Numbered from the stretch's first letter, positions 44,079 to 60,378 are shown. The stretch is DNA of 64,000 nucleotides from an uncultured Gammaproteobacteria bacterium (GCA_964639595.1 CAZXEC010000001.1:88111-152110); one strand, 5' to 3'. A program made the numbers and translations. The notes: generated from the sequence alone by a model not told the origin.

Positions 44079-44079
44079 T

Positions 44080-44559: not shown

Positions 44560-44565
44560 TAAATT

Positions 44566-45060
44566 ATGCAACTATCACGCCTACCCCAAATAGGACCAAA
44601 GAAAAAATCAAAAAGCAGGCTTGGCCAAGGCCTGTCTACTGGCCATGGCAAGACAGCAGGCAGAGGCACCAAAGGGCAAAAGGCCCATTCGTCAGTCCCG
44701 TTTGGTTTTGAAACCGGATCAAGAACCGGCAGGCTCCTCAAAAGGCTGCCATTCAAAAAGGGTATTGGTAATGATGTGCTGGGTAAAAAGTTCCTAGCTA
44801 TTAACCTGGGGCAATTATCAAAACTTAACAAGAATGATACGGTTGATGCGCTCTTGTTGATCGAAAAAGGTTTAGTCAAAGCGGGCGCCATCAGAAGGAG
44901 AGGTGTTAAAATTTTATCAGGCGGAGACTTTAACATTCCGCTGACTTTCAAATTACCGGTATCGCAAAAAGCCCGGCAAAAGATCGAGCAGGCAGGCGGT
45001 CAGGTGATTTGGCCAAACAAAACCAACAAGACAGAAAACACGACAGAAGATTCAGACTAA
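44566..45060 (+). CDS. rplO: 50S ribosomal protein L15 (follows S5 directly; no L30 gene)
   Basis: [21 protein letters not shown]. Confidence 0.93.
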
Positions 45061-45071
45061 TAAAAAATTTT

Positions 45072-46349
45072 ATGATTATCAATCAACTTAAATTAATTTT
45101 TCAGATTCCTGAATTAAAAAGAAAAATTCTATTTACCCTATTTATTTTAACGATTTTCAGGATTGCGGCTCATATTCCCATCTCTGGAGTTGACTTGTTG
45201 GCATTAAAAAATCTTTTTGCCCAAAACCAATTATTATCATTGTTAAATTTATTCTCCGGCGGGACATTGGCCAACTTTTCCATTATTGCCCTGGGCTTAA
45301 ACCCCTATATCAATGCTTCAATTATTATGCAGCTTTTAACTATGGTGTTTCCCCAACTGGAGGCTCTGTCCAAAGAAGGAGAATTCGGCAGACAAAAAAT
45401 TAACCAATATACCCGTCTGTTGACTATTCCCCTATCCCTGGTTCAGGCTGTGGGCATGTACAGTCTGTTACAAGGCCAGCAGGTTTTGAAACAGCAAGAT
45501 ACTTTAACAATAGCCTCGGTTATCATCACGATGACTGCCGGCACAGTTTTTTTAATGTGGCTGGGAGAGTTATTAACAGAATATGGAGTTGGCAACGGTA
45601 TTTCACTGATTATTTTTGCCGGAATTGTGGCCCAACTGCCCATTTCTTTAGGACAGACTTTTTCAGTATTTGATGAGTCCCAACTGTTTAACCTATCAGT
45701 CTTTTTTGTCATGTCAGCCCTGCTTATTGCCGCCATTGTCGTGATTAATGAAGGGAAAAGACAGATTTTAGTACAGTACGCCAAGCGTATCAAAGGTGAT
45801 AATCTGCAAGGTAGCCAGTCTACTTATCTACCCTTGAGAGTTAACCAAGCAGGGGTTATCCCCATTATCTTTGCCGTATCACTGGTTTTGATCCCATCAC
45901 TGATTGGCGGGTATTTGCAAAATATTCCCAATCCCGCCATTGCCAGTATGGCGGCCAGGGTAGTGTCCTGGTTTGCCCCCACGAGTATTACTTATAATGT
46001 AGTTTACTTTTTGTTGGTGATCGGTTTTACTTATTTTTATACGGCTGTTACCTTTAACCCCAAAAAAATTGCCGACGAAATCAGGAAATTTGGCGGTTTT
46101 ATCCCTGGTATTAGACCAGGTGCGACTACTGCCGGCTATCTTAATTATATTTTAACCAGGATTACCTTGGCAGGTGCGGTATTTTTAGGGCTGGTGGCCA
46201 TCTTACCGTCAATTGCTCAACAGTTGACCGGCGTGACAACTTTTGCCTTAGGCGGGACAGGAATTTTAATTATAGTTTCGGTAGTTTTGGAAACAACCAA
46301 GCAATTAGAATCAATGCTAGTCATGCATAATTACGAGAAGTTTTTATAA
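45072..46349 (+). CDS. secY: Preprotein translocase SecY
   Basis: Start at [23 protein letters not shown]. Ten TM segments. Confidence 0.93.
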
Positions 46350-46374
46350 TTTATACATTGACAAGAAGAGTCCT

Positions 46375-47130
46375 TTGCAAACTAAAACTAAACAGCAACT
46401 AAAATCTATGGCAGCAGGCGGCAGGGTCGCTTGTCAAATATTAGCCGAGGTAATAAAAGCCGCCCGGCCCGGCATAACCACTCTGGAGCTTGATCAGATG
46501 GCCGACCAGATGATGGTAGAAGCGGGAGTCGAGGCAGGGTTTAAAAAAGTTGCAGGATACAGTCATGCTACCTGCATCAATATTGGCGCAGATATAGTCC
46601 ATGGTATTCCTGACAGTTACGAGATCAAATCTGGTGACCTAGTCAGTATTGATCTGGGAGTTTATCATCAAGGTTTGCATACTGATTGCGCTTGGACTAT
46701 CCAAGTTGCTAGCCAGAGCCAAGCTCAATTTTTAGCAGCCGGCAAGCAGGCATTACTGTCAGGCATTGCCCAGGCTGTCAGCGCTAACAAAGTAGGAGAT
46801 ATATCACAAGCCATTCAGAACATAATCGAAGAACAGGCTGGATACCATGTGGTCAGAGAGTTAGTCGGACATGGTGTAGGAAGCCAGCTACATGAAGACC
46901 CGCAGGTTCCCGGCTATGGCAGGGCGGGCCGCGGAGAGCAATTGGCAAATGGGGCAACTTTGGCAATTGAGGTGATTTATAGCCAAGGTAAAACGCCAGC
47001 AATCTTTAAAAATAAAGACGGCTGGACAATAACTACTGCCGACGCTAGCCTATCTGGTTTATTTGAGGAGACTATTGTGGTTTGGGAAGGTCAGCCCAAG
47101 ATTTTAACGCCGACCCATCAGTACTTGTAA
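46375..47130 (+). CDS. map: Type I methionine aminopeptidase (follows secY directly; no adk)
   Basis: Pita-bread fold motifs DLVSIDLGVYHQGLHTDCAWT and VGHGVGSQLHE. Confidence 0.93.
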   Translation: MQTKTKQQLKSMAAGGRVACQILAEVIKAARPGITTLELDQMADQMMVEAGVEAGFKKVAGYSHATCINIGADIVHGIPDSYEIKSGDLVSIDLGVYHQGLHTDCAWTIQVASQSQAQFLAAGKQALLSGIAQAVSANKVGDISQAIQNIIEEQAGYHVVRELVGHGVGSQLHEDPQVPGYGRAGRGEQLANGATLAIEVIYSQGKTPAIFKNKDGWTITTADASLSGLFEETIVVWEGQPKILTPTHQYL

Positions 47131-47170
47131 TCTGACTATGGGTTTGGTATACTAGAAAGGATTTTTTATC

Positions 47171-47410
47171 GTGGCCAAACAAGGCTATTTCGAAATAGAA
47201 GGTGAAGTTCAAGAAGCTTTGCCAAACACTCTTTTTAGGGTGCTTGTCAAACAGGCCCCAGAACAAGGGTTGGTAGGCAAAGTTATTTTGTGCCATATTT
47301 CCGGCAAAATGCGGATGCGTTACGTGCGGATTTTACCGGGCGATATGGTCAGAGCGGAGATGACTCCTTATGATTTAGATAAGGGGCGGATTACTGCTCG
47401 GGCCAGATGA
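47171..47410 (+). CDS. infA: Translation initiation factor IF-1
   Basis: S1-like fold. [39 protein letters not shown]. Confidence 0.93.
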
Positions 47411-47420
47411 AGGCTAATTT

Positions 47421-47537
47421 ATGAAAGTTCAAGCATCAGTCAAAAAGCGTTGTCAGGATTGTCAGTTTATCAAAAGACATGGAGTTTTATACGTAGTTTG
47501 CCGGCGCAATCCCAGGCACAAACAAAGACAATGGTAA
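47421..47537 (+). CDS. rpmJ: 50S ribosomal protein L36 (absent from the ORF track because it is too short)
   Basis: Manual translation gives [38 protein letters not shown] (38 aa). Confidence 0.9.
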
Positions 47538-47540
47538 AAT

Positions 47541-47954
47541 ATGCGTATTTCAGGAATAGATAGAAAAGATCAAAAAAGAATTGAAGCAGCTCTGCCTTAT
47601 ATTTATGGTGTGGGCAGATCTAATGTCAAAACCATCTTACAACAAGCTGGCATCAGTCCCAATAAGAGAACTAAGGATTTGACCGAAGGTGAAGTTGGCA
47701 AGATTCAGAAGATACTGGAGACTATCCGTACAGAGGGAGAATTACGCCGAGAGGTACAACAGAATATATCCAGACTGAAAGAAATTGGCGCCTATCGGGG
47801 AGCCAGGCATACCAGAAACCTGCCAGCCAGAGGCCAAAGAACCAAGACTAATGCCAGGACCAAAAGAGGTAAAAGAGTCACCATTGGCACGGTTCGTAAG
47901 GATGTTGTTACCAAGATGGGGACTGCCAAAACTCAACCTGGACAAAAAGCCTAA
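47541..47954 (+). CDS. rpsM: 30S ribosomal protein S13
   Basis: MRISGIDRKDQKRIEAALPYIYGVG. Confidence 0.95.
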   Translation: MRISGIDRKDQKRIEAALPYIYGVGRSNVKTILQQAGISPNKRTKDLTEGEVGKIQKILETIRTEGELRREVQQNISRLKEIGAYRGARHTRNLPARGQRTKTNARTKRGKRVTIGTVRKDVVTKMGTAKTQPGQKA

Positions 47955-47962
47955 AATAGACA

Positions 47963-48349
47963 ATGGCCAATACTAAAAAAAGCAAAAAAAAGCAGACGAG
48001 GCAAGTTGTTGCCGGACGAGTTTATGTAACTGCCACTTTTAACAATACAGTGGTAACCATCACTGATACGGAAGGCAACACTTTGTGTTGGGGTTCATCG
48101 GGCGCATCTGGTTTTAAGGGCGCTAGAAAATCCACCCCATTTGCCGCCACTACCAGTGTGGAACAGGTGGCGCGCAAGGCTCAAGGCATGGGAATAAAAG
48201 AAGTTGAGGTTTATATAAAAGGCCCTGGACCTGGCCGGGATAGCGCTATCAGGGCGTTAAGGTCGCAAGGTCTGAATATTACCTTAATTGCTGATGTAAC
48301 TCCCATGGCACATAACGGACCTAGACCAAAAAAGCGCCGGAGAGTGTAA
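47963..48349 (+). CDS. rpsK: 30S ribosomal protein S11
   Basis: TFNNTVVTITDTEGNTLCWGSSGASGFKGARKSTPFAA. Confidence 0.95.
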   Translation: MANTKKSKKKQTRQVVAGRVYVTATFNNTVVTITDTEGNTLCWGSSGASGFKGARKSTPFAATTSVEQVARKAQGMGIKEVEVYIKGPGPGRDSAIRALRSQGLNITLIADVTPMAHNGPRPKKRRRV

Positions 48350-48354
48350 TTTCT

Positions 48355-48963
48355 ATGGCAAGATATACAGGACCAAAAAGAAGATTGTCAAAGCGTGAAG
48401 GTATGGCTCTGTTTGCCAAAGACGAGAAAGCAATGGAGAGGAAAGGGGGAGTGGCGCCAGGACAGCACGGTCATAGGGGTGGCAGAAAGTTATCAGAATA
48501 TGGCGTGCAACTTAGGGAAAAACAAAAAGTTAAAAGAATTTATGGACTGATGGAAAGGCAATTTGCCAACCTGGTTGAGAAAGCTGCTCGTAAAAAAGGC
48601 GATACAGGAGAAAATATGTTGGCACTTTTAGAAACCAGACTGGACAACGTGGTCTATAGATTAGGTTTTGTCCCATCAAGAATGATGGCCAGACAATTGG
48701 TTGGTCATGGACATATTTTGGTCAATGGCAAGAAATTGACTATCCCTTCCTACCAAGTCAGGCCCGGACAGACGATTTCTTTATCAGGTAAAGCTCTGAA
48801 TATGCCGGTTGTTGTAAGTCAGTTGAAAAAGACTAAAGAAGAAAAATTAGCCAGTTACTTGAAGAAGAAAGCTGCGGCCGGACAATTGGATCATCTGCCC
48901 AAGAGAGATGAAATAGAATTGCCGGCAGCCGAATCGTTAATTGTTGAGTTTTATTCAAGGTAA
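48355..48963 (+). CDS. rpsD: 30S ribosomal protein S4
   Basis: MARYTGPKRRLSKREG, S4 domain. Confidence 0.95.
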   Translation: MARYTGPKRRLSKREGMALFAKDEKAMERKGGVAPGQHGHRGGRKLSEYGVQLREKQKVKRIYGLMERQFANLVEKAARKKGDTGENMLALLETRLDNVVYRLGFVPSRMMARQLVGHGHILVNGKKLTIPSYQVRPGQTISLSGKALNMPVVVSQLKKTKEEKLASYLKKKAAAGQLDHLPKRDEIELPAAESLIVEFYSR

Positions 48964-49000
48964 AGGTTATTTATTAATAAAAGAAAGGAGATTTTTTAAA

Positions 49001-49921
49001 ATGGTTGACTTAGTCAAAATAACTGTTCAGGAGGAAAACGACACTTTTGGTCGTTTTGTAGTAGAACCCCTAGTTCAAGGATATGGCCAAACTATTGGCA
49101 ATAGCTTGCGCCGGGTACTGTTATCAAGTTTAGGAGGTGCGGCCATCACCGCTGTTAAAATCAGTGGAGTTAGCCATCAATTCTCTGCCATTTCGGGAGT
49201 TAAGGAGGATGTGGCGGAATTGTTGCTGAACCTGAAACAGGTCAGGCTGTCCATGAGTGGCAAAGATAGCGCTAAAATCACTTTGTCACAAAAAGGCGAA
49301 GGTGATATTAATGCCAGCCAAATAAAAACCGTGGCAGGAGTTGAAGTAGTCAACCCAGATTTATATATTGCTCACCTATCTGGTGCCAAAAGCAAACTGG
49401 ATATTGAAATGACGGTGGAAAAAGGCTATGGCTATGCGCTGTCTGATGAAAGGCCTCAAACAGAAGTTGGGGTGATTGCCCTGGATGCCCTATTTTCTCC
49501 GGTGGTGCGAGTCAATTATAAAGTTGAGGCTACCCGTGTTGGTAGAAGGACTGACTTTGACAAATTGACCATGGAGATTTTCACCGATGGGACAATTGGG
49601 CCATCAGAGGCGTTGAAAGAGGCTGCCAAAACACTGGTATCTTACTTTACTATTTTTTACCAGCCTCAAAGTCGACCGGTAGTAGTTTCCGATGAAGGTC
49701 AGATAGTGTCGTCTAAAAATGATGAAACTGCTAGCCTGACTATCGAAGAACTGGATGTGCCGGCTCGCATAGTCAATGCGCTACGGGCTGCCAAAATTGA
49801 GACAGTGGGAGATCTGACATCTTACCAGAGAAAGGATCTGTTAAAGATTAAAAATCTGGGAGCCAAGTCACTGTCAGAGGTGGAGAAAAAACTTAAAGAA
49901 AGGGAAGTGCAACTACCCTAA
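49001..49921 (+). CDS. rpoA: DNA-directed RNA polymerase alpha subunit
   Basis: Start at MVDLVKITVQEEND, with AAGGAG upstream. C-terminal domain LTIEELDVPARIVNALRAAKIETVGDL. Confidence 0.93.
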   Translation: MVDLVKITVQEENDTFGRFVVEPLVQGYGQTIGNSLRRVLLSSLGGAAITAVKISGVSHQFSAISGVKEDVAELLLNLKQVRLSMSGKDSAKITLSQKGEGDINASQIKTVAGVEVVNPDLYIAHLSGAKSKLDIEMTVEKGYGYALSDERPQTEVGVIALDALFSPVVRVNYKVEATRVGRRTDFDKLTMEIFTDGTIGPSEALKEAAKTLVSYFTIFYQPQSRPVVVSDEGQIVSSKNDETASLTIEELDVPARIVNALRAAKIETVGDLTSYQRKDLLKIKNLGAKSLSEVEKKLKEREVQLP

Positions 49922-49931
49922 AAGGGAATTT

Positions 49932-50393
49932 ATGCGTCATCAAGTTTTTGGCAGGAAACTGGGACGTAACAGCGGCGAGAGGCAAGCCCTCTTCCGTGGT
50001 TTGGCTCAAGCGCTGGTGTTGCGAGGCGCTATCATCACAACTGAAGCCAAAGCTAAGGCCATCAAGGGCTTGGTGGAAAAATTAGTCACCAAAGCCAAAA
50101 AAGACAAAAAACAAATGTTGTTTGATTTTTTCCAAAATAGCGAGACTGTTGATTTTTTGGTTAAAAATATTGCTCCCCGGATGATGAGCAGAGTCGGCGG
50201 ATATACCAGAATCGTATCATTGGGCCAGAGGAAAGGTGATGGTGCTGAAATGGTCAAGATGGACTGGATGGAAGCAAAATTAGCCAAAGAGCCGCCGGCA
50301 GCGGATGCCAAAAAAACATTAACTCTAACAAAAACCAGAAAGCCGGTTGCCAAAACTGCCAAAACCAAAACAACTTCCAAAAAAACTAAATAA
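49932..50393 (+). CDS. rplQ: 50S ribosomal protein L17 with a lysine-rich C-terminal tail
   Basis: MRHQVFGRKLGRNSGERQALFRGLA. Confidence 0.93.
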   Translation: MRHQVFGRKLGRNSGERQALFRGLAQALVLRGAIITTEAKAKAIKGLVEKLVTKAKKDKKQMLFDFFQNSETVDFLVKNIAPRMMSRVGGYTRIVSLGQRKGDGAEMVKMDWMEAKLAKEPPAADAKKTLTLTKTRKPVAKTAKTKTTSKKTK

Positions 50394-50396
50394 TTT

Positions 50397-50816
50397 ATGC
50401 AATCAACAGCCAGCGTTAAAGCCAAAGATATTAAAAGACAGTGGCAACTAATTGATGCCAGAGACCAAATTTTGGGCAGGATGGCTACCAGGATTGCCAC
50501 GCTTTTGCTGGGTAAGGGCAAGCCGTATTTTGTTCCCCATATGGATTGTGGTGATTATGTAGTAGTGGTCAATGCCGGCAAGGTTAAAACCACTGGTCGT
50601 AAACAAGAGCAAAAACAGTACAGTCGGTATTCAGGTTATCCGGGCGGACTCAAAAAAACATCCCTGGCTATCTTGAGAGAGAAAAAACCAACAGAGGTAA
50701 TCAAACATGCAGTGCGGGGAATGATGCCGCACAATAAATTAGGCCGGCAAAGTATTAAAAAATTATTTGTTTTTGAGGGGGGAAATCATCCCTATCAAGG
50801 TCAGGTGAAAAGCTAA
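50397..50816 (+). CDS. rplM: 50S ribosomal protein L13
   Basis: WQLIDARDQILGRMATRIATLLLGK. Confidence 0.93.
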   Translation: MQSTASVKAKDIKRQWQLIDARDQILGRMATRIATLLLGKGKPYFVPHMDCGDYVVVVNAGKVKTTGRKQEQKQYSRYSGYPGGLKKTSLAILREKKPTEVIKHAVRGMMPHNKLGRQSIKKLFVFEGGNHPYQGQVKS

Positions 50817-51268
50817 TGCCCAGAAAGAAAAAAGCAGCGCCGGTTATCAAGGAAGTAGTAAGTGAGAAACCTAAAGAGCAGGTAGTCTATCAAGCGGTGG
50901 GCCGCCGCAAATCGGCAGTGGCTCAAGCCAAACTTTTTGCCGGCGCCGGTAACTTAACGATTAACAGTCACCCCATATTGCAATATTTTTCCGGCCAGGT
51001 ATCAAAGCTGGCTTGGCAAAAACCTTTTCAAACAGTGGGAGCATTAGGTAAATTTGACGGTACGATTAAAGTTTACGGCTCCGGCAAAAGCGGCCAACTG
51101 GTGGCAGTTACTCATGCCATCTCCCGCGCCCTGCTGCAAGTCAATCCGGATTGGAGAAAGCCTCTCAAAAAACAAGGACTTTTGACCCGTGACCCCAGAG
51201 TTAGGGAAAGACGCAAATACGGCAACGCCCAAAAAGCGAGAGCGAAAAAGCAGTCACCCAAACGATAA
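50816..51268 (+). CDS. rpsI: 30S ribosomal protein S9 with an N-terminal extension
   Basis: YQAVGRRKSAVAQAKL...RERRKYG. Confidence 0.93.
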   Translation: MPRKKKAAPVIKEVVSEKPKEQVVYQAVGRRKSAVAQAKLFAGAGNLTINSHPILQYFSGQVSKLAWQKPFQTVGALGKFDGTIKVYGSGKSGQLVAVTHAISRALLQVNPDWRKPLKKQGLLTRDPRVRERRKYGNAQKARAKKQSPKR

Positions 51269-51422: not shown

Positions 51423-51451
51423 TTGACAAGCTTGGCAGTTTATGCTATACT
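51423..51451 (+). promoter_or_regulatory. Near-consensus sigma70 promoter driving the island operon (TTGACA-17 nt-TATACT)
   Basis: TTGACA 51423-51428, 17-nt spacer, TATACT 51446-51451. Lies about 30 nt upstream of the first island ORF. Confidence 0.6.
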
Positions 51452-51480
51452 AGTCTCTGTTTTTAGATAAAATCAAAAAA

Positions 51481-51696
51481 ATGTCAGAGACACGTAAAGA
51501 AAAATTTGTAAGGTTAGCAACTTATCGGACTAATGTTGTGTTAGAGAAGCTCCGCATCCTCGGCAACCTTTCCAACAAAGCTAACTATGAATACTCCGAA
51601 GAGGAAATAAATAAAATCTTCTATGCTATTGATTCACAACTCCGGATCATAAAAGCTCGTTTTAGTGGTAAAAGGAAAAGAGAGTTTAAATTATGA
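51481..51696 (+). CDS. Hypothetical small basic protein (71 aa), first gene of the island operon
   Basis: No recognisable motif. Overlaps the next ORF by 4 nt (ATGA). Confidence 0.45.
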   Translation: MSETRKEKFVRLATYRTNVVLEKLRILGNLSNKANYEYSEEEINKIFYAIDSQLRIIKARFSGKRKREFKL

Positions 51697-52262
51697 AAAG
51701 AACCAGAAATACATTAGATGATTTACTCTTGCTTTGCATTAGTGATATTTTGGGGAAAAAACAAAAGTGTTCCTACGGAAATCTTGTTAAAAAGGCCTCT
51801 ACGAAATATCCCGAAGTTTTTAGTTTGTCAGATTATCCCAAATGGCCAGATTCTCTTAAGTTGGATCGGCCACTAAGGCAATTAAGAAGTGAAAGATTGA
51901 TAACAGGTAGCCCGACAACGTTTTATTCGTTGACTTCTCTGGGTAAAGAAAAAGTCAGATTTTTAAACAACAAACGGTTTCCGGTAAAAGACAACACTAG
52001 TAGGCCAACAAGAAGCCCCTCTTTGACATTTCTAAAAGAACTAGAAAATAGTGATGACTTTAAAGATTTTGCTTCAAACAAAGAAGACTTCAAGCCAAAT
52101 AATATGAAAATAAGAGCTCTGACAAGATTTACTCTAGAGACGCCTAAGAAAGTTATTTTAGACCACTTGCTCTTTTTAAAAAAAACTGCTCATCGAGAAA
52201 AAAAGGGAACTTTGGAAGATTTTTTAATCACTTACATAAATTACATCGAAAGAATTAAGTAA
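51693..52262 (+). CDS. Hypothetical protein with a putative N-terminal winged-helix domain (189 aa)
   Basis: Helix-turn-helix-like N-terminus with a wing-like ...LRSERLITGSPTTFYSLTSLGKEKV. Only 2 nt separate it from the downstream ATPase gene. The fold assignment is inference. Confidence 0.45.
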   Translation: MKRTRNTLDDLLLLCISDILGKKQKCSYGNLVKKASTKYPEVFSLSDYPKWPDSLKLDRPLRQLRSERLITGSPTTFYSLTSLGKEKVRFLNNKRFPVKDNTSRPTRSPSLTFLKELENSDDFKDFASNKEDFKPNNMKIRALTRFTLETPKKVILDHLLFLKKTAHREKKGTLEDFLITYINYIERIK

Positions 52263-52264
52263 AT

Positions 52265-54163
52265 ATGGATTTTCAAAGCGCAGAGTCGGGGCAACTGTCA
52301 GTTAACGAAGGAAGGTTAGTTAAGTCTCTTGCAGATAGTACAGTTAGAGGCATAATGGACGCAGTTGTAGAACTAGTAACGAATTGCGACGATAGCTATG
52401 TACGTCAAGAGCAAGAAGGTAGTAATTCTTCTGGTAGGATAGACCTCTATATTGATCGAGGTGCTGGTGGACATTGTAAAGAATTGAGGGTAATCGATGA
52501 GGCGGCCGGCATGGATTACCAAGCATTACGAAGAGCAATAGAATTTAGCGGGGAAACCAGCGGTTTTAAAGAAGGAAGAAGTGTCAGGGGTTTTTTTGGA
52601 CGCGGCCTAAAAGAATCCATACTCGCTTTGGGGATAGGGACGATATTTACCTTAAAAAAAGGTGTTCTTAGCAGAGCAATTATTTCTTATGACGAAAAGG
52701 AAAGGCAATCAAAATACGACCTATCAGTTCCTGTACAGAACCTTTCACAGGAAGAATTAATTAATTATGGTTTTTCGGGCAATTCAGGGACTTTAGTAAC
52801 AATTAAGATAACAAACACAAAGAAAGATTACATCCCAGGAAGAAATCATATAAAAGAACAGTTCCTAAAACACTATGCTTTCAGAGATATTAATTCTTCC
52901 ACAAAAAGAGCAGTGTATTTACACTTCTCGGATGTAGAAAGTAAAGATAAATATAGCTCAAATATCCCATTGGTTTATAAATGGCCGGAAGGGAAATTAG
53001 TTTTCGATAAGGATATGAAAATACTTAATTCAGTAGCTCATTTTAAAATTTACGAGAGCTTAGAACAGTTGCAAACTCCTAAAAATCCTACTGGTGAAGC
53101 AGGTCTATTGATAAAGACCGAAGGGGCGATTCTGGACAACCAATTATTTGGCTTCGAGACTGATCCAAACGGTCTATTTTTCTTCGGAGAAATAACTGCT
53201 CCGGGGATAGCCCAAGCAATTAGAAGCGGTGATGAATCTATCGTGGATACCAACAGAACAGGTTTAGCTCGGAACCACCCGTATAATAAAGAGCTTGAAA
53301 ATATAAGTAAGGAAATTCTAGGAAAACTTATTCAGGAAAGAAAAGAAAGACTAAAATCAGAGAAAAAAGCTGAGTTGGCAGAACCTATAAATAACCTTTT
53401 TAATAAATTATGCAAAGAATTATCAGATCTAGCAAAAGATGAACTCGAGGATAAGGAACCTGGTCCAGGAGAAGTCAAAGCATTTATGATCAAGCCTCTT
53501 TTTGCAAACATAGACCCTGAATCACCTAGGACACTTTCCGTATATTGTCCAAAGTATTTATCAGAAGATGAAGGAACAAAGGTTGTAAATCTTTTGAGTT
53601 CTAACGGGAATATAAAATTATCTAATGAATCCATAATTCTTGAACAATACAAAAGAGACCCAGATGTACTAAAGTCAACTTTTAAATTAAATGGAGAAAA
53701 CGAAGGCGAAGTGGCTCTAATAACGGCCACATTGGGACGAGTTACCGCCAATAGTGAAGTAAGGGTGCATAAATTAGGACACATAGGTCCAGGCTCAGAA
53801 AAACCTCCGACTGGTTCAGGAGGAGGAGTTTTTAGAAAGATAGAGCCTGCTTATGATGAAAGCCCAATACAAAGATTTGAATATGTTTCTGGAGGAATAA
53901 TAAAAGTATATATAAAGTTTCCTGGAGTTGGAGACATTTTAGGAGAAAATTTTGAGACTATAGAAACTCAGGGTGCAAGAGTCGCATTATCAGAGATTGT
54001 TATAGAAGCGTTTTCAAGACATATTTCCAGACAACGAGTTGGAAAATATGTAGAGGAGCAGATAGACCCTTTTACATCAGAGATGGATAGATTAAGAAAG
54101 AAAGCCACAAAGACTGTTTATAATATCCTTCTCCGAGCAGATTTGAGAGAATTATTAAATTAG
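52265..54163 (+). CDS. GHKL-superfamily (Bergerat-fold; MutL/MORC/histidine-kinase-like) ATPase, 632 aa, with a long domain of unknown function
   Basis: N-box ELVTNCDDS, G1-box RVIDEAAGMD, G2-box GFFGRGLKESILALGIGTIFT, all within the first 130 aa. No Hsp90 middle-domain signature. No HK dimerisation/His box. Confidence 0.75.
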   Translation: MDFQSAESGQLSVNEGRLVKSLADSTVRGIMDAVVELVTNCDDSYVRQEQEGSNSSGRIDLYIDRGAGGHCKELRVIDEAAGMDYQALRRAIEFSGETSGFKEGRSVRGFFGRGLKESILALGIGTIFTLKKGVLSRAIISYDEKERQSKYDLSVPVQNLSQEELINYGFSGNSGTLVTIKITNTKKDYIPGRNHIKEQFLKHYAFRDINSSTKRAVYLHFSDVESKDKYSSNIPLVYKWPEGKLVFDKDMKILNSVAHFKIYESLEQLQTPKNPTGEAGLLIKTEGAILDNQLFGFETDPNGLFFFGEITAPGIAQAIRSGDESIVDTNRTGLARNHPYNKELENISKEILGKLIQERKERLKSEKKAELAEPINNLFNKLCKELSDLAKDELEDKEPGPGEVKAFMIKPLFANIDPESPRTLSVYCPKYLSEDEGTKVVNLLSSNGNIKLSNESIILEQYKRDPDVLKSTFKLNGENEGEVALITATLGRVTANSEVRVHKLGHIGPGSEKPPTGSGGGVFRKIEPAYDESPIQRFEYVSGGIIKVYIKFPGVGDILGENFETIETQGARVALSEIVIEAFSRHISRQRVGKYVEEQIDPFTSEMDRLRKKATKTVYNILLRADLRELLN

Positions 54164-54175
54164 CGTCAACAACGA

Positions 54176-54409
54176 ATGTTTCAAGCGAAGAGGGCAAAAA
54201 AAATTACAATCGGTCAGGATGGAATCTATCTACTTAGACTAGCGCTTGAATCTTTTGAAGTCATTACCGAAGGTTTCAATCGGCAGGTCAATAAATTCCC
54301 AAGTATGCAATCTTCAATAAGGGCAAGAAAGATAATTCCAAAACTTAACAAGGCGATAATCGAAATACGGACAATTATTAAAAGACTTGAGAGAAATCTT
54401 AACTTTTAG
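54176..54409 (+). CDS. Hypothetical small protein (77 aa), last gene of the island + operon
   Basis: 12 nt downstream of the ATPase gene. Basic and helical. No recognisable motif. Confidence 0.4.
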   Translation: MFQAKRAKKITIGQDGIYLLRLALESFEVITEGFNRQVNKFPSMQSSIRARKIIPKLNKAIIEIRTIIKRLERNLNF

Positions 54410-54490: not shown

Positions 54491-55114
54491 TTATCCTCTT
54501 TTAATCTTTTTCCAAAATCCGTCTGGAACGACCACTAATTTTAGAAAACTTAACCTTACCAGGAGACTATCAGCTGTAACTTCAAATTCTTGAGCCAGAT
54601 CGGGAAAAGTATCTGGAAGATCAAAAACCGAACAGGGGGTTGGAATACGATTTCGGCTCATAAATTGATCCCATCTTTCCTTCAAGACTTTTTCCGGCAT
54701 TAATACCATACTAGCAAAAGTTCTGGCTTGTCTTTCAATATAGTCGAATAACTTATTATCTAATTTCTCCTGCCATGTTATATATGGTTCTAAGCCTTTT
54801 GGGCCATCCTTGCTGTACCATTCTTTGTGAAGATATAAATGACCGATTTCCTCAGCAATAGTAAATCTTATTCGTTCCGGTTGTTTGGTATACATTCCTT
54901 CGTCTATCACGATAGAATCGAAGTTTTGGTTAATAAATGCATTTACTCCAAAATTTTTGATCAATCCACTAATTAAGATAATCCTAAGTCCTAATTTTAA
55001 TTCAGCTATATCCTCAATAGGTACTGGAAGAGTTAAAGAAGGATGACAATTTTCTAAAAATAAATTCGCTTGATTCTTAACGTCCTGAATATTTATCTCG
55101 TTGGGATTTTTCAT
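54491..55114 (-). CDS. ImmA/IrrE-family (M78-like) metallopeptidase-domain protein, second gene of the HTH-peptidase pair
   Basis: RFTIAEEIGHLYLH aligns to the ImmA/IrrE HEXXH helix, but the first His is replaced by Glu. Directly abuts the upstream HTH gene. Confidence 0.65.
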   Translation of the reverse strand: MKNPNEINIQDVKNQANLFLENCHPSLTLPVPIEDIAELKLGLRIILISGLIKNFGVNAFINQNFDSIVIDEGMYTKQPERIRFTIAEEIGHLYLHKEWYSKDGPKGLEPYITWQEKLDNKLFDYIERQARTFASMVLMPEKVLKERWDQFMSRNRIPTPCSVFDLPDTFPDLAQEFEVTADSLLVRLSFLKLVVVPDGFWKKIKRG

Positions 55115-55501
55115 TCATTTGTCTAGTAGAGTTATTAACTGCTCCAGTTTTTTTCTATCCAGTTTTTTATTTCTCATGGTTCTGAAGAATGCTGGTAGCA
55201 GATCATTTATATTTTCTTGATTTTTTATATCTGTGGGGATTTGTCCTTTGGCTGTATGTGCCAAATCATGAAATTTAATCCATTCTTCAGTGTCACGTTT
55301 TATTTTCAGAGCAGTTGCATATCCTGCTAATTTTTCATCATCTAGCGTAGGCGGCAAGATATTTCTTTCAAGTCTACTGATATTTCCTGGATCATAACCA
55401 TATCTTTCGCAAAACGCACGAAGGGAAAATCCAAGTTCTATTCTCTTTACTCTGAAGAAATCACCGAAATTTTGATTAGAAGCATCTTGAATTTTATTCA
55501 T
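55115..55501 (-). CDS. XRE-family helix-turn-helix transcriptional regulator
   Basis: FRVKRIELGFSLRAFCERYGYDPGNISRLERN, a Cro/C1-type HTH. ATG at 55501 chosen. The track ORF extends to a GTG at 55525, which lies inside a palindrome. Confidence 0.7.
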   Translation of the reverse strand: MNKIQDASNQNFGDFFRVKRIELGFSLRAFCERYGYDPGNISRLERNILPPTLDDEKLAGYATALKIKRDTEEWIKFHDLAHTAKGQIPTDIKNQENINDLLPAFFRTMRNKKLDRKKLEQLITLLDK

Positions 55502-55502
55502 A

Positions 55503-55556
55503 GTGTTGTAATAATAATACAACACTATTCTAGTATAGACTTTGACAGGTTGTCAA
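55503..55556. promoter_or_regulatory. Two operator-like inverted repeats in the divergent HTH/HNH promoter region
   Basis: GTGTTGTA-ATAATAA-TACAACAC (55503-55525). TTGACA-GGT-TGTCAA (55542-55556), the latter carrying a -35-like TTGACA. Confidence 0.55.
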
Positions 55557-55569
55557 GTTTTGAAAGGAG

Positions 55570-55812
55570 ATGAAGGTAAAAAATATAATGAATTATAAAT
55601 GTAGATATTGTGGATGGACAGGTCCAAGAAAAGATTTCGAGATTGACCATGTAATCCCAATTGTTAGGTCAATTTTACAGAATATCTTACAGCCAGCGCT
55701 AGATTTAATTTGTTCTGGTTGCAACAGACAAAAAGGCAGAATGACAGGAGCAGGATATATGGAGATTGCTAAATTCATTCGAAGCAAATTTAGGACCAAT
55801 TATCTAAAATGA
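55570..55812 (+). CDS. Small standalone HNH endonuclease (80 aa)
   Basis: CRYCGW...FEIDHVIP...N...CSGCNRQKG, the HNH beta-beta-alpha-Me with two CxxC pairs. Confidence 0.75.
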   Translation: MKVKNIMNYKCRYCGWTGPRKDFEIDHVIPIVRSILQNILQPALDLICSGCNRQKGRMTGAGYMEIAKFIRSKFRTNYLK

Positions 55813-55909: not shown

Positions 55910-55943
55910 TTAACTAATCTCACCTGTTAACTAATCTCACCTG
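55910..55943. repeat. Perfect tandem duplication of the 17-mer TTAACTAATCTCACCTG
   Basis: 55910-55926 and 55927-55943 are identical. Confidence 0.8.
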
Positions 55944-55968: not shown

Positions 55969-56814
55969 TTAAGAAAATTTCAAAATTTGATCAAGTTTGT
56001 TGTTAGGAAATAAGTCTTTTGGATAAATAGAGATAACATTTAACCTTTGTTGTTGCCAGAACTTTTTCTTTCTTGCAATCAAAGCGTCGTATGCTTTAAC
56101 CTCTCCTTTTAATCCAAAAAATTCAATAAGACAGCCATTAACCTTAAAATCGGCAGTCATATTATCCTTACCGTAAGGAATATTTCTATCGTGGAGAATT
56201 TTTCTAGCATAAAACCAATCATCAATAATCTTCTCAGTTAATGAGTCGCATTTGTGTCCATCATTAGCAATATACTTTTTGGCATACTTAACCGGGTTAG
56301 GATTAAAACCTGCAGCTATGATAGCAGCATTCCAGCTACCAAAGCGAAGGCGTGCTGCTTTGTGTTGGCTAAATTCTCTTTTAAGAGGAATCCTTCCAGT
56401 CTTTTTATAGAACGATTGAATTTGCTCAATAATTATTTCTTTTACTATAATTTGACCAGCATTTTTACACGCCTTTGAGCAATACTTCTCTCGACCTTTA
56501 AATTCTTTATTGCAATAACCACACATTTTAATAACAGCATGCCTTTTGGGAAATCTTGAGTTATTTATTGTCGCTGCGCAAGAGCGAGAGCAATAGTAAG
56601 ATCTGGCATTCTTGAGTTCCTTCAATTGCCGTTTGAAGATCTTGCCACAAGAAGGATTAGTGCAGATAAGCGCTTTTTGTTTATTTCTTGCCTTGCTTAT
56701 ACATTCTAGAGAGCAATATATATTCCAGTCAAACTTTTTACCTTCATTGATTCTCCCTTGACTACGAAGAATAATTTTTTTACATCGATCACATTTAACA
56801 GGCAAAAGTTCCAT
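55969..56814 (-). CDS. Multi-zinc-ribbon protein with a C-terminal Vsr/DUF559-like PD-(D/E)xK endonuclease domain
   Basis: Six or more CxxC pairs in the N-terminal half. C-terminus DSLTEKIIDDWF...ADFKVNGCLIEFFGLKG...YDALIARKKKFW...LNVISIY matches the Vsr/DUF559 core. Start codon is 2 nt from the tRNA-like 3' end. Confidence 0.6.
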   Translation of the reverse strand: MELLPVKCDRCKKIILRSQGRINEGKKFDWNIYCSLECISKARNKQKALICTNPSCGKIFKRQLKELKNARSYYCSRSCAATINNSRFPKRHAVIKMCGYCNKEFKGREKYCSKACKNAGQIIVKEIIIEQIQSFYKKTGRIPLKREFSQHKAARLRFGSWNAAIIAAGFNPNPVKYAKKYIANDGHKCDSLTEKIIDDWFYARKILHDRNIPYGKDNMTADFKVNGCLIEFFGLKGEVKAYDALIARKKKFWQQQRLNVISIYPKDLFPNNKLDQILKFS

Positions 56815-56980: not shown

Positions 56981-58039
<1,059 letters not shown>

Positions 58040-58054
58040 TTTGTTTTTTGCCAA

Positions 58055-58693
58055 ATGCCCAGAATTACTGATATTGCTCCACAGAAAAAACGTCCCAATT
58101 ATTTTAATATTTTTCTGGATGGAAAATTTGCATTTTCTGCCTCTGCCCAAACTGTTGCCGAAAAAAAATTAAAAGTCGGTCAAGAATTATCTGACGTGCA
58201 ACTGGATCATACCCGAAAACAAGTAGGGATAGAAAAACTGCTAACTAAAGCCCTTTTTTTTCTATCTTTCAGGTCCAGATCAGAGCATGAGATCAGACAA
58301 TATCTTGCTCAAAAAATCACCGATGAGAAAGATACCATTTTGGCAGATGAGGTGATTGCCAAACTCAAAAAGATTGGCCAGGTTGATGATTTGGCTTTTG
58401 CCAGAGCGTGGATCGACTCCAGATCTCGTTCCAAACCCAGAAGCTTAAAATTTATTAAATTTGAACTTATTAGAAAAGGGATTGATAGAGCGATAATTGA
58501 CCAAGAACTGTCCCAAGTTGGGCCTGCTGATCAGGTTGAGCTGGCTCTCAAGGTGCTTATCAAAAAAAGGCAAAAATTGCACAAACTCCCGGAAAAAGAG
58601 CAGCAGCTCAAAGCTTGGGGGTATCTCTCGCGCTTAGGGTTTGACTGGGAGACGGCAAAAGTTGCATTTGACCAATTCCGGCAAATCAAGTAG
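58055..58693 (+). CDS. recX: Regulatory protein RecX
   Basis: 212 aa, three-helix repeat architecture. Immediately downstream of recA. Confidence 0.8.
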   Translation: MPRITDIAPQKKRPNYFNIFLDGKFAFSASAQTVAEKKLKVGQELSDVQLDHTRKQVGIEKLLTKALFFLSFRSRSEHEIRQYLAQKITDEKDTILADEVIAKLKKIGQVDDLAFARAWIDSRSRSKPRSLKFIKFELIRKGIDRAIIDQELSQVGPADQVELALKVLIKKRQKLHKLPEKEQQLKAWGYLSRLGFDWETAKVAFDQFRQIK

Positions 58694-58805
58694 AATATAA
58701 GTTAACTTTCGGGCAAGATGAGGCCAAATTATATGATGTATCTTCGAAAGCTCAATTTAATCCCAGCCAAACCTTTGGCTGCTGGCAGACTTTCGCATCG
58801 TGTAT

Positions 58806-58828
58806 AAACTCTCCTTTTAGGAGAGTTT
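58806..58828 (+). promoter_or_regulatory. Perfect 9-bp hairpin AAACTCTCC-TTTTA-GGAGAGTTT in the rny leader
   Basis: The 3' arm mimics an SD (GGAGAG). The 5' arm is anti-SD-like (CTCTCC). The genuine SD GGAGAGAG is at 58866-58873. Confidence 0.5.
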
Positions 58829-58875
58829 GTTGACCTCATCTTCCCCTAAGCAGTTTTAAGTTTAAAAAGGAGAGA

Positions 58876-60378
58876 GTGATGATTAATATTTTTGGAAAAA
58901 TTTTTAATGCCAATGAGCCAGATACCAGTAAGGCTCGTCAACAACCGGCCCAAGTAGCACCAATTAGCAAACCGGACGAGTCGGCCAGATCCATGCCACC
59001 GGTCAAAAGTGCTCAAGACGAGGCTCGTCGCATCAAGGAACAAGCAGAAGAAGAAGCCAGAAAGGTCAGACAGGAAGTGCTGGCTCTGGAAACCAGGCTG
59101 GCCCAAAAAGAAGAAGATGTCGATCAAAAACTGCAAAAGTTAGAAGAACAAGAAAGAGCTTTAAGACAGGCAGAAGAACATCTGCAAGGCCAACGAACAG
59201 AAATTAATAATCTCAAACAAGATCTGGTGACGCGATTGGAAAAAGTATCTTCCCTGACCCGGGAAGAAGCCAGAAACTTAATGCTGGCATCTATTGAAGA
59301 AAGACTAGCCGATGATGTCGCCAAACGCATCAAAGAAGCGGAGGAAAAAATCAAGCGTGAATCAGAAAAACTGGCCAAACAAATTTTGGCTGATGCCATG
59401 CTGCATGGGGCGACCGATTATGTGCCGGAGTTTACTGTTTCCCTGGTCAAATTAGCGGATGAGGAAATGAAAGGTAGAATTATCGGCAAAGAAGGCCGCA
59501 ATATCCGTGCCTTTGAACAAGCCACTGGCGTGGATGTGGATTTGGATGAAGAAGGAATCATCAGATTGTCTTCTTTTGACCCGGTGCGTCGAGAAATTGC
59601 CAAGGTGGCTTTAGAAAAACTGATTCGTGACACCAGAATTCAACCATCCAGAATTGAAGAGGTGGTGGCCCAAACTACTCGTGACATTGACAGGACCATT
59701 CACCAGGAGGGTGAAAAACTCTGCCATGTGGTGGGGGTTTATAACCTACCAGGCGATCTGGTCAATATGTTGGGCAGGTTTAAATACAGATTTTCCTACG
59801 GTCAGAGCCTCATTGCCCATACTTTGGAGGAAACCAAAATAGGTATTGCTATTGCCCAAGAGCTCAAAGCTGATGTCAATGTGGTTAAGCTGGGCTGCCT
59901 ATTCCATGATATCGGTAAAATTGTCACCGATGAGGAAGGAACTCATGTGCAACTAGGGGTTGACCTGTTGAAAAAATATCATATTCCTGATGCGGTAGTG
60001 GCTTGTGTGGCCGAACACCATGAGGATCGGCCATTCTCTTCGGTGGAATCGATGATTGTTTATATCGCCGATGCCATTTCCGGTTCTCGTCCAGGCGCCA
60101 GACATGAAAACGTGGAAGAATATATCAAAAGAATGACTGATTTGGAAAACATTGCCAAGTCTTTCAAGGGAGTCAAAGAGGCCTATGCCCTGTCTGCCGG
60201 TCGCGAGGTGAGAGTGGCAGTTGTTCCGGAAGAAGTTGACGACAACCAAGCAGTGAAACTGGCTCATGATATTGCCGATCGGGTTAATAAAGAAGTGATG
60301 GTACCGGGAAATGTCAAGATAACAGTAGTTAGGGAGATCAGAGCCCAAGTTACCACCAGTGCCCACGGTCCCAGATAA
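58876..60378 (+). CDS. rny: Ribonuclease Y (KH + HD domains)
   Basis: KH RIIGKEGRNIRAFEQATGVDV. HD LGCLFHDIGK...AEHHED. Confidence 0.9.
   Translation: MMINIFGKIFNANEPDTSKARQQPAQVAPISKPDESARSMPPVKSAQDEARRIKEQAEEEARKVRQEVLALETRLAQKEEDVDQKLQKLEEQERALRQAEEHLQGQRTEINNLKQDLVTRLEKVSSLTREEARNLMLASIEERLADDVAKRIKEAEEKIKRESEKLAKQILADAMLHGATDYVPEFTVSLVKLADEEMKGRIIGKEGRNIRAFEQATGVDVDLDEEGIIRLSSFDPVRREIAKVALEKLIRDTRIQPSRIEEVVAQTTRDIDRTIHQEGEKLCHVVGVYNLPGDLVNMLGRFKYRFSYGQSLIAHTLEETKIGIAIAQELKADVNVVKLGCLFHDIGKIVTDEEGTHVQLGVDLLKKYHIPDAVVACVAEHHEDRPFSSVESMIVYIADAISGSRPGARHENVEEYIKRMTDLENIAKSFKGVKEAYALSAGREVRVAVVPEEVDDNQAVKLAHDIADRVNKEVMVPGNVKITVVREIRAQVTTSAHGPR

Follow-up and report, generated by a model that had tools for sequence, protein, structure and literature searches.

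Organisation of the locus

The window, meaning the whole stretch of DNA that was analysed, comprises 64,000 nt from an uncultured Gammaproteobacteria bacterium (GCA_964639595.1, CAZXEC010000001.1:88111-152110). A cassette of three genes, here named A, B and C, was identified on it behind a sigma-70-type promoter (Table 1). Genes A and B overlap by the sequence ATGA, B and C are separated by 2 nt, and a further small ORF, D, begins after a gap of 12 nt. These ORFs, the overlap and both gaps had been reported in an earlier, sequence-only reading of the locus, and recomputing the coordinates returned all of them as described. The promoter agrees with the consensus at 11 of 12 positions, as the earlier description of it as near-consensus would have it; a scan of 6.2 kb gave three sites of this quality, and the distance from its end to the ATG of gene A is 30 nt. 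Boxes of the TTGACA/TATAAT type were also found upstream of the A homologue at five other, bacterial loci. The near-palindrome overlapping the -35 box could, speculatively, be an operator; it is not conserved in related loci, and no conserved operator or palindrome was found upstream of A across the loci compared.

Table 1. Features of the cassette and of its immediate surroundings, with positions counted from the first nucleotide of the window.
Feature	Position	Strand	Remarks
Sigma-70-type promoter	51423-51451	+	TTGACA-17-TATACT with TG extended -10; drives A-B-C
Near-palindrome TGACAAGCTTGGCA	51424-51437	.	Overlaps -35 box; 9-nt arms, 89% complementary
Gene A	51481-51696	+	ORF of 71 aa
Gene B	51693-52262	+	ORF of 189 aa
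B residues 8-94, winged helix-turn-helix domain	51714-51974	+	Net charge +11; motif FP..F...YP.WPD
B residues 109-187, five-helix C-terminal domain	52017-52253	+	Predicted structure; motif LRCTLETP
Gene C	52265-54163	+	ORF of 632 aa, GHKL ATPase
C residues 1-214, GHKL (Bergerat) ATP-binding domain	52265-52906	+	Four motifs intact
C residues 215-337, S5-fold transducer domain	52907-53275	+	
C residues 338-396, antiparallel coiled-coil hairpin	53276-53452	+	Helices 339-364 and 373-394
C residues 408-502, Ig-like beta-sandwich domain	53486-53770	+	
C residues 503-524, disordered Gly/Lys-rich linker	53771-53836	+	pLDDT < 50
C residues 525-632 and stop, small beta unit and two long helices	53837-54163	+	Conserved LAELVGEAFCR
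ORF D	54176-54409	+	77 aa
CapH/CapP-like HTH and M78 peptidase pair	54491-55525	-	Downstream of, and convergent to, A-B-C
Palindrome, own operator of the CapH/CapP-like pair	55500-55528		Pair faces the HNH gene across it

The locus had been proposed to be a promoter-driven, translationally coupled operon of four genes. This was found to be real for A-B-C, while D has to be excluded, as a search through the related loci returned no homologue of it, even beside a C that is 97% identical, and as DNA similarity to the closest relative extends exactly to the end of the C stop codon and no further. Furthermore, D forms a one-member cluster and was called by one source only, and the small ORFs downstream of C at other loci form one lineage-specific Chloroflexota cluster unrelated to it. 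D is a singleton and not part of the unit.

The cassette lies in a low-GC island (51.3-56.9 kb, approximately 35% GC versus approximately 45% in the flanks) inserted between rpsI and recA. The sole candidate for flanking repeats, of 21 nt with an 86% match, is located inside rpsI and recA and was judged to be due to chance, and neither an Rfam match nor a tRNA was found in or near the island. The neighbouring genes encode an M78/CapP-like peptidase, an XRE-type HTH protein, an 80-aa HNH protein and an HNH_repeat/PDC-S69-like protein. Profile matches thus recovered the two nucleases and the CapH/CapP-like pair previously noted near the operon; as conserved neighbours they did not hold, and the pair is absent from four related loci. 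Regulation of the cassette by the CapH/CapP-like pair was considered and rejected, as such a pair should be upstream, divergent and conserved, whereas here it is downstream, convergent and missing in relatives.

The ATPase encoded by gene C

Gene C encodes an ATPase, probably of the paraMORC type, in which the GHKL and S5 domains are followed by a coiled-coil segment and an Ig-like domain, and whose C-terminus is helical. Its sole Pfam match is PF13589 (HATPase_c_3; 32.2 bits versus a cut-off of 25) and its best structural matches are MORC3, SMCHD1 and MORC2, in agreement with the earlier assignment to the GHKL ATPases of the MORC/MutL kind. All three sequence motifs named in that assignment, ELVTNCDDS, DEAAGM and GFFGRGLKES, are present. 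Across 36 homologues that are 36-84% identical to the C of the window, residues E36, N40, D78, G82, G109, G112 and G114 of the ATP-binding motifs are invariant and T176 is near-invariant. In the S5 domain, K284 (in LIKT) is near-invariant in the same homologues, and a motif D.NR.GL occurs at residues 328-334. These invariant motif residues, together with K284, make it likely that C is a functional ATPase.

The sequence-only reading had reported some 500 residues of C as being without recognisable similarity. This was not upheld, as the canonical GHKL and S5 arrangement extends to approximately residue 335 and the remainder resolves into recognisable folds in the predicted structure. The model has a pTM of 0.60, so the relative placement of the domains is uncertain. 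The Ig-like domain is duplicated in a subfamily of approximately 735 aa. The disordered linker has a mean net charge of +5.5 over the 36 homologues; no other segment of C is consistently basic, and outside the linker the protein is roughly neutral.

The winged-helix protein B and the basic protein A

Protein B (190-230 aa across approximately 90 related loci), the obligate partner of the ATPase, consists of a winged helix-turn-helix (wHTH) domain and a helical C-terminal domain connected by a flexible linker. No match was found for it in Pfam, nor in the PDB by sequence. A profile search returned 664 homologues, and among the 120 listed all are of 185-254 aa and without a Pfam domain. The folds nearest to B are those of the transcription regulators PadR, MarR, DtxR/MntR and HrcA.

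Comparison of the window to its closest relative showed 97% identity for C and 95% for the C-terminal domain of B, versus 62% for the wHTH domain and 49% for A, with the break in identity located at the linker of B. This mosaic boundary within a single gene suggests an exchangeable DNA-binding or recognition part joined to a conserved motor. As the C-terminal domain of B is conserved to the same degree as C, it is suggested to be a protein-protein interface with C rather than a means of plain self-dimerisation, and it may be the surface by which B docks onto C.

Protein A is a helical, strongly basic (+8) protein. Proteins of this family, of 71-88 aa, were identified in a subset of B-C loci including the window. 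Besides the window, 11 distinct loci have the A gene immediately before B, and these belong to CPR, WOR-3, Nitrospiraceae, a gammaproteobacterial MAG, Pacearchaeota and Nanoarchaeota. The A proteins possess the family motif ERFKRIA..RTN..L.KLRLLGNCSNK..YEY and a net charge of +8 to +12 in 11 of 12 homologues, the other being +4. Zero matches were obtained for A in Pfam, PADLOC and NCBIfam. A is an accessory component of a subset of loci and not part of the core. Given the basic charges of A and B and the approximate neutrality of C, DNA binding would reside in A and B.

Linkage of B and C and their genomic neighbourhoods

Co-occurrence of the four genes, which the earlier reading had treated as one system, was examined at approximately 90 related loci. 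The conserved core was found to be two genes, B and a C of approximately 630 aa, with A in a subset of loci and D nowhere. In the clade with a C of this length, B adjoins C at every locus that retains flanking DNA, usually overlapping it or lying a few nucleotides away, and at three loci the order is reversed, with C preceding B. Look-ups that started from B found a C homologue (725-735 aa) as the next gene in all three cases. In the more distant subfamily of approximately 735 aa, B is present at only 11 of 39 loci, which indicates that some relatives work without it. One locus in a co-assembled MAG carries an in-frame B-C fusion at the DNA level followed by a frameshift, which may be an artefact; no B-C fusion was found among 384 retrieved proteins.

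All-against-all clustering of the flanking ORFs returned A and B as the only recurrent partners, and no nuclease, helicase, methylase or other effector conserved with the B-C pair was found among the flanking genes. An ATPase with AAA_14 and DUF4143 domains, which recurs at five loci, was considered as a hidden third component and rejected, its linkage being inconsistent. Among 125 nearest neighbours in 44 loci, seven are DNA methylases and no helicase or nuclease recurs; Fic/SoFic, PIN and HNH proteins were also seen. One related locus carries a type II restriction-modification (R-M) system, another a TIR protein and a serine recombinase, and a third an intein bearing a LAGLIDADG domain. The pairs reached from B either have transposases of the IS21, Mu, IS240 and rve kinds around them or immediately follow a set of integrase, excisionase and primase genes. 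Many loci lie amid housekeeping genes, such as those for SecA/ValRS, pyruvate:ferredoxin oxidoreductase/tRNA deacylase and ATP synthase, and within Dehalococcoidia the cassette is repeatedly placed with SecA on one side and a PolX-like gene on the other. At many loci there are no mobile-element genes within 6 kb. The genes downstream of B-C vary, and are often on the opposite strand or of a housekeeping nature. Enrichment of the family in defence islands appears modest.

Distribution and horizontal transfer

The family was found to comprise 567 clusters at 50% identity (E<=1e-30) among 1.84 billion protein representatives. In 185,579 species genomes, 107 places with a relative were confirmed, and these cover over 20 phyla, bacterial as well as archaeal. 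Its members all derive from uncultured organisms. The copy of a gammaproteobacterial MAG shares 64% identity with one from Bathyarchaeota, whose 93-kb contig also bears archaeal housekeeping genes, and a copy from Micrarchaeota shares 88% with one from Pirellulales. Genomic location differs even between copies that are 97% identical. In collections of mobile elements, no relatives were identified in 2.9 million IMG/VR viral contigs, 50,697 INPHARED phage genomes or 72,556 PLSDB plasmids. The cassette is rare, phyletically patchy and horizontally transferred, including between domains. It is self-contained and horizontally mobile with a strong promoter of its own, consisting of a two-gene core with the accessory gene A in the lineage of the window.

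Comparison with known systems

At E<=1, none of A, B, C or D matched a family of PADLOC-DB v2.0.0, whose models include Mza, Septu, Gabija, BREX, DISARM and the PDC candidates, and nothing significant was returned for A-D by NCBIfam or PHROGs. The earlier statement that the genes fit no named defence system is thus sustained in these three collections. Literature searches on bacterial MORC, paraMORC, HATPase_c_3 and GHKL with winged helix returned no description of the B-C pair.

In line with the earlier reading, a housekeeping identity does not fit a family that is rare, patchy and transferred between domains, and that lies in a low-GC island here. For MutL, no DNA_mis_repair family match and no MutL_C endonuclease/dimerisation domain was found in C (Pfam, NCBIfam). 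C likewise lacks an HSP90 match in both collections, and the family is not near-universal as would be expected of Hsp90/HtpG. Topoisomerase VI-B, whose partner subunit combines a winged-helix catalytic-tyrosine domain with a Toprim domain, was rejected as there is no Top6A/Toprim partner, B being a wHTH and an all-helical domain with no Toprim fold.

A prokaryotic MORC radiation with GHKL and S5 domains was predicted in 2008 to act in conflict, always with nucleases, helicases or methylases (Iyer, Abhiman & Aravind 2008, PMC2292703). C resembles prokaryotic MORC and paraMORC proteins in that its N-terminal GHKL domain has the full set of ATP-binding motifs and precedes an S5-fold domain, in its scattered occurrence and lateral transfer among bacteria and archaea, and in having DNA methylase, Vsr or HNH genes as occasional neighbours. 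It differs in that the MORC-specific S5 motif GhXhhpXXRhl (PMC2292703) was found in none of 36 C family members by a regular-expression search, and in that its loci carry no conserved SF-II helicase, restriction-fold nuclease or methylase of the kind found in R-M-type operons. Signatures described for the paraMORCs are ExxxH in S5 (paraMORC2), a C-terminal RE-fold nuclease (paraMORC3), TIR (paraMORC4) and an HxH domain (paraMORC5) (PMC2292703). Compared by these published descriptions only, C has no TIR or nuclease domain (Pfam) and no conserved ExxxH or HxH in its profile, and its extension is made up of a coiled coil followed by Ig-like and helical parts instead of the domains of paraMORC3, 4 and 5. 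Furthermore, no family-specific wHTH protein is described there as an obligate partner.

Sequence identity of C to the ATPase modules of eukaryotic MORC2, MORC3 and SMCHD1 is only 13-18%. In sequence-based searches of the PDB, C matched MORC3 alone and did so marginally, the profile-to-sequence similarity (E 0.003) being confined to motifs II-III. Unlike these proteins, C lacks CW, chromo-like and hinge domains, and DNA binding here seems to be delegated to separate small proteins. GHKL ATPases also serve as the regulatory or motor part of anti-phage systems, such as the MutL-like MzaB of Mza and VcSduA of Shedu type I-D (GHKL with a DUF4263 nuclease; PMC12137116). The cassette differs from the former as none of A-D matched a Mza model of PADLOC, and from the latter as C has no DUF4263 or other nuclease domain (Pfam). 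The CapK/CapS module, in which CapK is an HTH-STAS-GHKL kinase and CapS a STAS-wHTH repressor upstream of an immune operon (Chambers et al. 2026, PMC13373217), is likewise a two-gene GHKL and wHTH module in conflict-gene neighbourhoods. It was rejected as an identity for B-C, as STAS domains are absent from the models and from Pfam, C possesses S5 and no downstream operon is conserved.

Proposed mode of action and alternatives

MutL, Hsp90 and the MORCs form a constitutive dimer through their C-termini and a reversible, ATP-dependent dimer of their GHKL heads, and so act as ATP-gated clamps. The explanation that is tentatively preferred, at a little short of an even chance, is that the cassette encodes a clamp of the MORC/MutL type with a DNA-binding adaptor, acting in genetic conflict. 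By analogy with these three families, C would dimerise constitutively through residues 525-632 and reversibly through its GHKL heads upon ATP binding. The conserved C-terminal domain of B would dock onto C, and its basic winged helix would supply DNA binding, aided by A. The complex may then load onto its DNA target, probably of incoming or mobile origin, and clamp or compact it. Such clamping would block replication or transcription without cutting, since the B-C pair is not accompanied by any conserved nuclease, helicase, methylase or other effector. A more specific form, which is rather doubtful, is nuclease-free prokaryotic silencing, in which a MORC/SMCHD1-like clamp, a winged-helix adaptor and, in some lineages, a histone-like basic protein would compact or block foreign DNA. 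The earlier designation as a candidate defence system is tempered by the flanks, which mix methylases, Fic, PIN, HNH, transposases and housekeeping genes with no conserved effector; a defence role is plausible.

The foremost alternative is that B is only a transcriptional autorepressor, like the wHTH proteins of the PadR/MarR kind and dimerising through a helical domain, and that C alone is the effector or sensor. The regulator folds nearest to B, the near-palindrome over the -35 box and the part of the longer subfamily that lacks B are consistent with this, as is the joint divergence of promoter region, A and wHTH between close relatives, which resembles an operator-repressor swap. Generic regulators, however, are usually shared among many kinds of operon, whereas B is a dedicated family found only next to C in every context examined. 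The order of B and C can also invert, the C-terminal domain of B is as conserved as C, and no palindrome is kept across loci, making this alternative unlikely.

A module for DNA organisation or repair outside defence (e.g. nucleoid compaction or host gene silencing), inherited mostly vertically within clades of uncultured lineages, would agree with the housekeeping flanks of many loci, the recurrent position in Dehalococcoidia, the absence of toxin and nuclease, and the chromatin function of eukaryotic MORC and SMCHD1, the best structural matches. It is quite improbable in view of the extreme sparsity of the family, the 64-88% identities between domains, the island between rpsI and recA, the differing locations of near-identical copies and the frequency of transposases, integrases and R-M genes as neighbours.

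Those same neighbours, namely the transposases and integrase sets beside pairs reached from B, along with the serine recombinase, the LAGLIDADG intein, the strong promoter and the HNH and homing-endonuclease-repeat genes that adjoin the cassette in the window, could instead indicate a module of mobile elements, serving addiction or maintenance, exclusion of competing elements or anti-defence. Its absence from the viral, phage and plasmid collections, the many loci with no mobile-element genes nearby and the lack of a recognisable toxin-like component leave little probability for this. A sensor-regulator pair controlling an adjacent operon, by analogy with CapK/CapS, where phosphorylation of the wHTH repressor by the GHKL kinase induces an immune operon downstream, is very improbable: CapK/CapS is a 'controller of adjacent pathways' by immune operons and R-M systems (PMC13373217) and the window cassette does lie beside other conflict genes, but CapK is of the anti-sigma-kinase type with STAS, while C has an N-terminal GHKL with S5, B has no STAS and no downstream operon is conserved.

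Implications

The cassette carries no nuclease, helicase or methylase, unlike the MORC conflict systems predicted in 2008, and has only a family-specific, predicted DNA-binding partner. The sharp mosaic boundary in B suggests an exchangeable recognition part, which is a testable idea. Should the cassette protect against foreign DNA, a MORC-type clamp alone could restrict or silence DNA in prokaryotes, and the pair would provide a minimal two-protein model for the mechanism of eukaryotic MORC and SMCHD1. It would also add a defence or conflict system missing from current catalogues, which overlook the cassette because it occurs almost only in uncultured lineages (CPR, DPANN, Chloroflexota, Aminicenantes, Bathyarchaeia). 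If the silencing mode is true, the cassette would be a bacterial and archaeal counterpart, in mechanism, of eukaryotic MORC-mediated transposon silencing, circulating through horizontal transfer among CPR, DPANN and many other uncultured phyla.

Gene content of the cassette

In the window, the genes for a 71-aa basic protein (A), a 189-aa winged-helix protein (B), a 632-aa GHKL ATPase (C) and a 77-aa ORF (D) were found on one strand, A and B overlapping by the sequence ATGA and gaps of 2 nt and 12 nt separating B from C and C from D. The promoter of the A-B-C block ends 30 nt 5' of the first ATG and is one of three sites with 11/12 matching positions in the 6.2 kb scanned. The overlap, the 2-nt gap and this promoter bear out the operon proposed by the sequence-only reading. 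The A to D block lies within a 5.6-kb segment of approximately 35% GC (flanks approximately 45%) between rpsI, at the end of the ribosomal-protein/rpoA cluster (ending at 51268), and recA (starting at 56981). Positions 43734-51268 hold the ribosomal-protein cluster with secY, map, infA and rpoA through rplM and rpsI, and positions 56981-60378 hold recA, recX and an RNase Y-like gene; since both flanks are ordinary housekeeping genes, the island is taken to have been inserted into a conserved core region. Proteins identical to B and C are present at NCBI from Candidatus Daviesbacteria (CPR), annotated as "hypothetical protein" and "ATP-binding protein", respectively.

Features of the low-GC island in the window
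Feature	Position	Strand	Detail
Promoter of A-B-C block	51423-51451	+	TTGACA-17-TATACT with TG extended -10; 11/12 positions match
A	51481-51696	+	71 aa
B	51693-52262	+	189 aa
C	52265-54163	+	632 aa
D	54176-54409	+	77 aa
M78 peptidase (CapP/ImmA-like) and XRE-type HTH protein (CapH-like)	within 54491-55812	-	
HNH endonuclease gene	within 54491-55812	+	80 aa; divergent from HTH/peptidase pair
Palindrome	55500-55528		14+14 nt, across HTH gene start
HTH gene promoter	55556-55527	-	11/12; abuts palindrome
HNH gene promoter	55560-55589	+	11/12; palindrome approximately 30 nt upstream
Zinc-ribbon/HNH_repeat protein	55969-56814	-	281 aa; several CxxC zinc-ribbon repeats and homing-endonuclease-associated HNH_repeat

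The ORFs of 80 loci from species-representative genomes and of several metagenomic contigs were searched with A, B, C and D in iterative rounds. Throughout the ~630-aa clade, B adjoins C wherever the locus retains flanking DNA, the two usually overlapping or lying a few bases apart, with C preceding B in three loci (L036, L040, L041). In one further locus (L044) B and C share one frame with no stop separating them; as a frameshift follows, this fusion may be an assembly artefact. When distant homologues of B were taken as the starting point, all three look-ups gave a C homologue of 725-735 aa directly downstream. A further 11 distinct loci carry, 5' of B, a homologue of A with a strongly conserved motif; they belong to CPR bacteria, WOR-3, Nitrospiraceae, a gammaproteobacterial MAG, Pacearchaeota and Nanoarchaeota. 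D had no homologue in the ORF search of approximately 90 related loci, formed a one-member cluster, is not annotated by NCBI and has no obvious ribosome-binding site; it may be no real gene or a strain-specific orphan. In the closest relative (L087), whose C is 97% identical, the gene 3' of C encodes a different protein of 272 aa, not D, and DNA similarity to the window (93%) stops at 54162, on the final base of the C stop codon. All-against-all clustering of flanking ORFs yielded no further recurrent gene.

On this comparison (B-C linkage, A in a subset, D absent, no other recurrent gene), the unit is B plus C, with A an accessory in the lineage of the window, and D and the HNH, CapH/CapP-like and HNH_repeat genes nearby do not belong to it. 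The sequence-only reading had set out a four-gene unit placed next to two nucleases and a CapH/CapP-like pair. Across loci B and C proved constant, A occurred in a subset and D in no other locus, and there was no recurrent partner beyond A and B, so neither its composition nor the bearing of its neighbours was upheld.

Some lineages show variations on this layout. On a complete Dehalococcoidia chromosome (L038, 5464-9009), two tandem C-like genes lie 3' of a single B, the first matching query residues 17-389 only. Chloroflexota loci (L007-L010) carry directly 3' of C a small acidic protein of 70-90 aa (motif DYYEWLKDNFKSFFNH) with no Pfam match and unrelated to D, which may be a lineage-specific accessory.

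Beside the cassette in the window, the M78 peptidase, XRE-type HTH and HNH genes look like a separate small module, in which the two regulators probably act on the HNH gene and not on the ATPase operon. The C-terminal region of the 281-aa protein matches PADLOC candidate PDC-S69 (E 7e-11), and a perfect 17-nt tandem duplication (55910-55943) lies just 3' of the end of its gene.

Architecture of the encoded proteins

The model of C (mean pLDDT 82.9) gave DNA-bound MORC2 as its top Foldseek match (E 7e-12), on which basis residues 1-335 are assigned to a GHKL plus S5-fold ATPase module extending beyond the 130-residue Bergerat fold. The ATP-binding residues are all invariant in 36 homologues and K284 of the S5 domain is near-invariant. 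The earlier call of a GHKL/MORC-like ATPase was thus correct, while its approximately 500 unrecognised residues were an overestimate. The S5 motif that is the defining mark of true MORCs (PMC2292703) was found in none of the 36 family members, and the family therefore appears paraMORC-like, akin to the GHKL+S5 ATPases of prokaryotic restriction-modification-type operons (Iyer et al. 2008), and not MORC. Similarity at the sequence level was limited to a marginal match to MORC3 motifs II-III, and Pfam detected neither nuclease nor TIR, helicase or methylase domains in C.

A more distant ~735-aa subfamily of C, from Gemmatimonadota and Rhodothermales, has a second Ig-like domain (a duplication), with B present in only 11/39 loci. 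This subfamily (L047-L086) is common in Longimicrobiales, Palauibacter and Rhodothermales, with B absent from most copies; examples are L069, L072 and L077 in NZ_OZ250143.1, and one chromosome holds two copies 28 kb apart.

In the model of B (pLDDT 89.8), residues 8-94 at the N-terminus fold as a winged helix, which a disordered linker joins to a C-terminal domain of five helices. The net charge resides mainly in the winged helix (+11 in the window) and in A (+8 to +12 in 11/12 homologues), C being near neutral with the exception of its linker.

Distribution and transfer

When 1.84 billion cluster representatives were scanned in full with HMMER, 567 proteins passed a cut-off of E<=1e-30 and 1,405 one of E<=1e-3. 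Among 185,579 species genomes the presence of relatives was confirmed at 107 places, in MAGs only; the best 80 of the 107 comprise bacteria (Chloroflexota, KSB1, Aminicenantes, Planctomycetota, Bacteroidota, Spirochaetota, WOR-3, Nitrospirota, Armatimonadota) and archaea (Bathyarchaeia, Nitrososphaerota, DPANN archaea). Searches of viral contigs, phage genomes and plasmids gave no relatives. A Bathyarchaeota copy, whose 93-kb contig also bears archaeal housekeeping genes, shares 64% identity with that of a gammaproteobacterial MAG. The ATPases of a Micrarchaeota MAG (L023) and a Pirellulales MAG (L024) are 88% identical, indicating either very recent inter-domain transfer or, as both contigs are short, mis-binning.

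Genomic context and possible function

The 125 nearest neighbours at 44 loci were a mixture. Those of conflict type comprised seven DNA methylases, two each of Fic/SoFic, PIN, HNH_2 and AAA_14+DUF4143, and intein/LAGLIDADG; housekeeping genes such as SecA, ATP synthase and aminotransferases were also present. One related locus carries a type II R-M system with Vsr and another a TIR protein with a serine recombinase, and other cassettes are flanked by SecA and ValRS, or by oxidoreductase genes on one side and a tRNA deacylase on the other. Distant B-C pairs found from B sit amid dense sets of transposases and integrases. Taken together, the neighbours suggest a mobile accessory or conflict module but do not prove defence.

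Comparison with L087 showed a mosaic, with identity of 97% for C and 95% for the C-terminal domain of B, falling to 62% for its winged helix and 49% for A, and the promoter region unalignable. The drop, seen inside gene B on comparing 51765-51990 of the window with 2187-2410 of L087, is sharp, and the break falls at the B linker; a further A-bearing relative (L089) gave a similar, weaker gradient. Since other parts evolve faster than the winged helix across the family, the step is best read as a recombination that exchanged A, the winged helix and the promoter. This fits a conserved motor (the B C-terminal domain plus C) with an exchangeable DNA-binding part, and equally fits an operator-repressor swap. 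That B is merely an autorepressor, with C acting alone, is the strongest of the alternatives, albeit unlikely. A non-defence role in chromatin or repair, which the housekeeping genes among the neighbours would fit, is improbable, and a function in service of mobile elements, which the transposases and integrases surrounding the distant pairs would fit, ranks just after it. A regulator of adjacent genes resembling CapK/CapS (GHKL kinase plus wHTH repressor) is very doubtful; homology to that pair was rejected, the architecture being different.

The pairing of B and C and the C-terminal architecture are absent from PADLOC, Pfam, NCBIfam and PHROGs, and no description of these features, or of the nuclease-, helicase- and methylase-free state, was found in the literature searched, in keeping with the earlier view of an unnamed system. 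The broader kind, namely GHKL+S5 ATPases from the MORC radiation within prokaryotic conflict systems, is already known. The reading that we tentatively place first, taken as a whole, is that C would be an ATP-gated dimeric clamp of the MutL/Hsp90/MORC type, onto which B would dock through its C-terminal domain and bring a DNA-binding winged helix, with A contributing non-specific nucleic-acid binding where present. Such a complex would work on DNA in a setting of genetic conflict and, as no effector is conserved, would do so without cutting.
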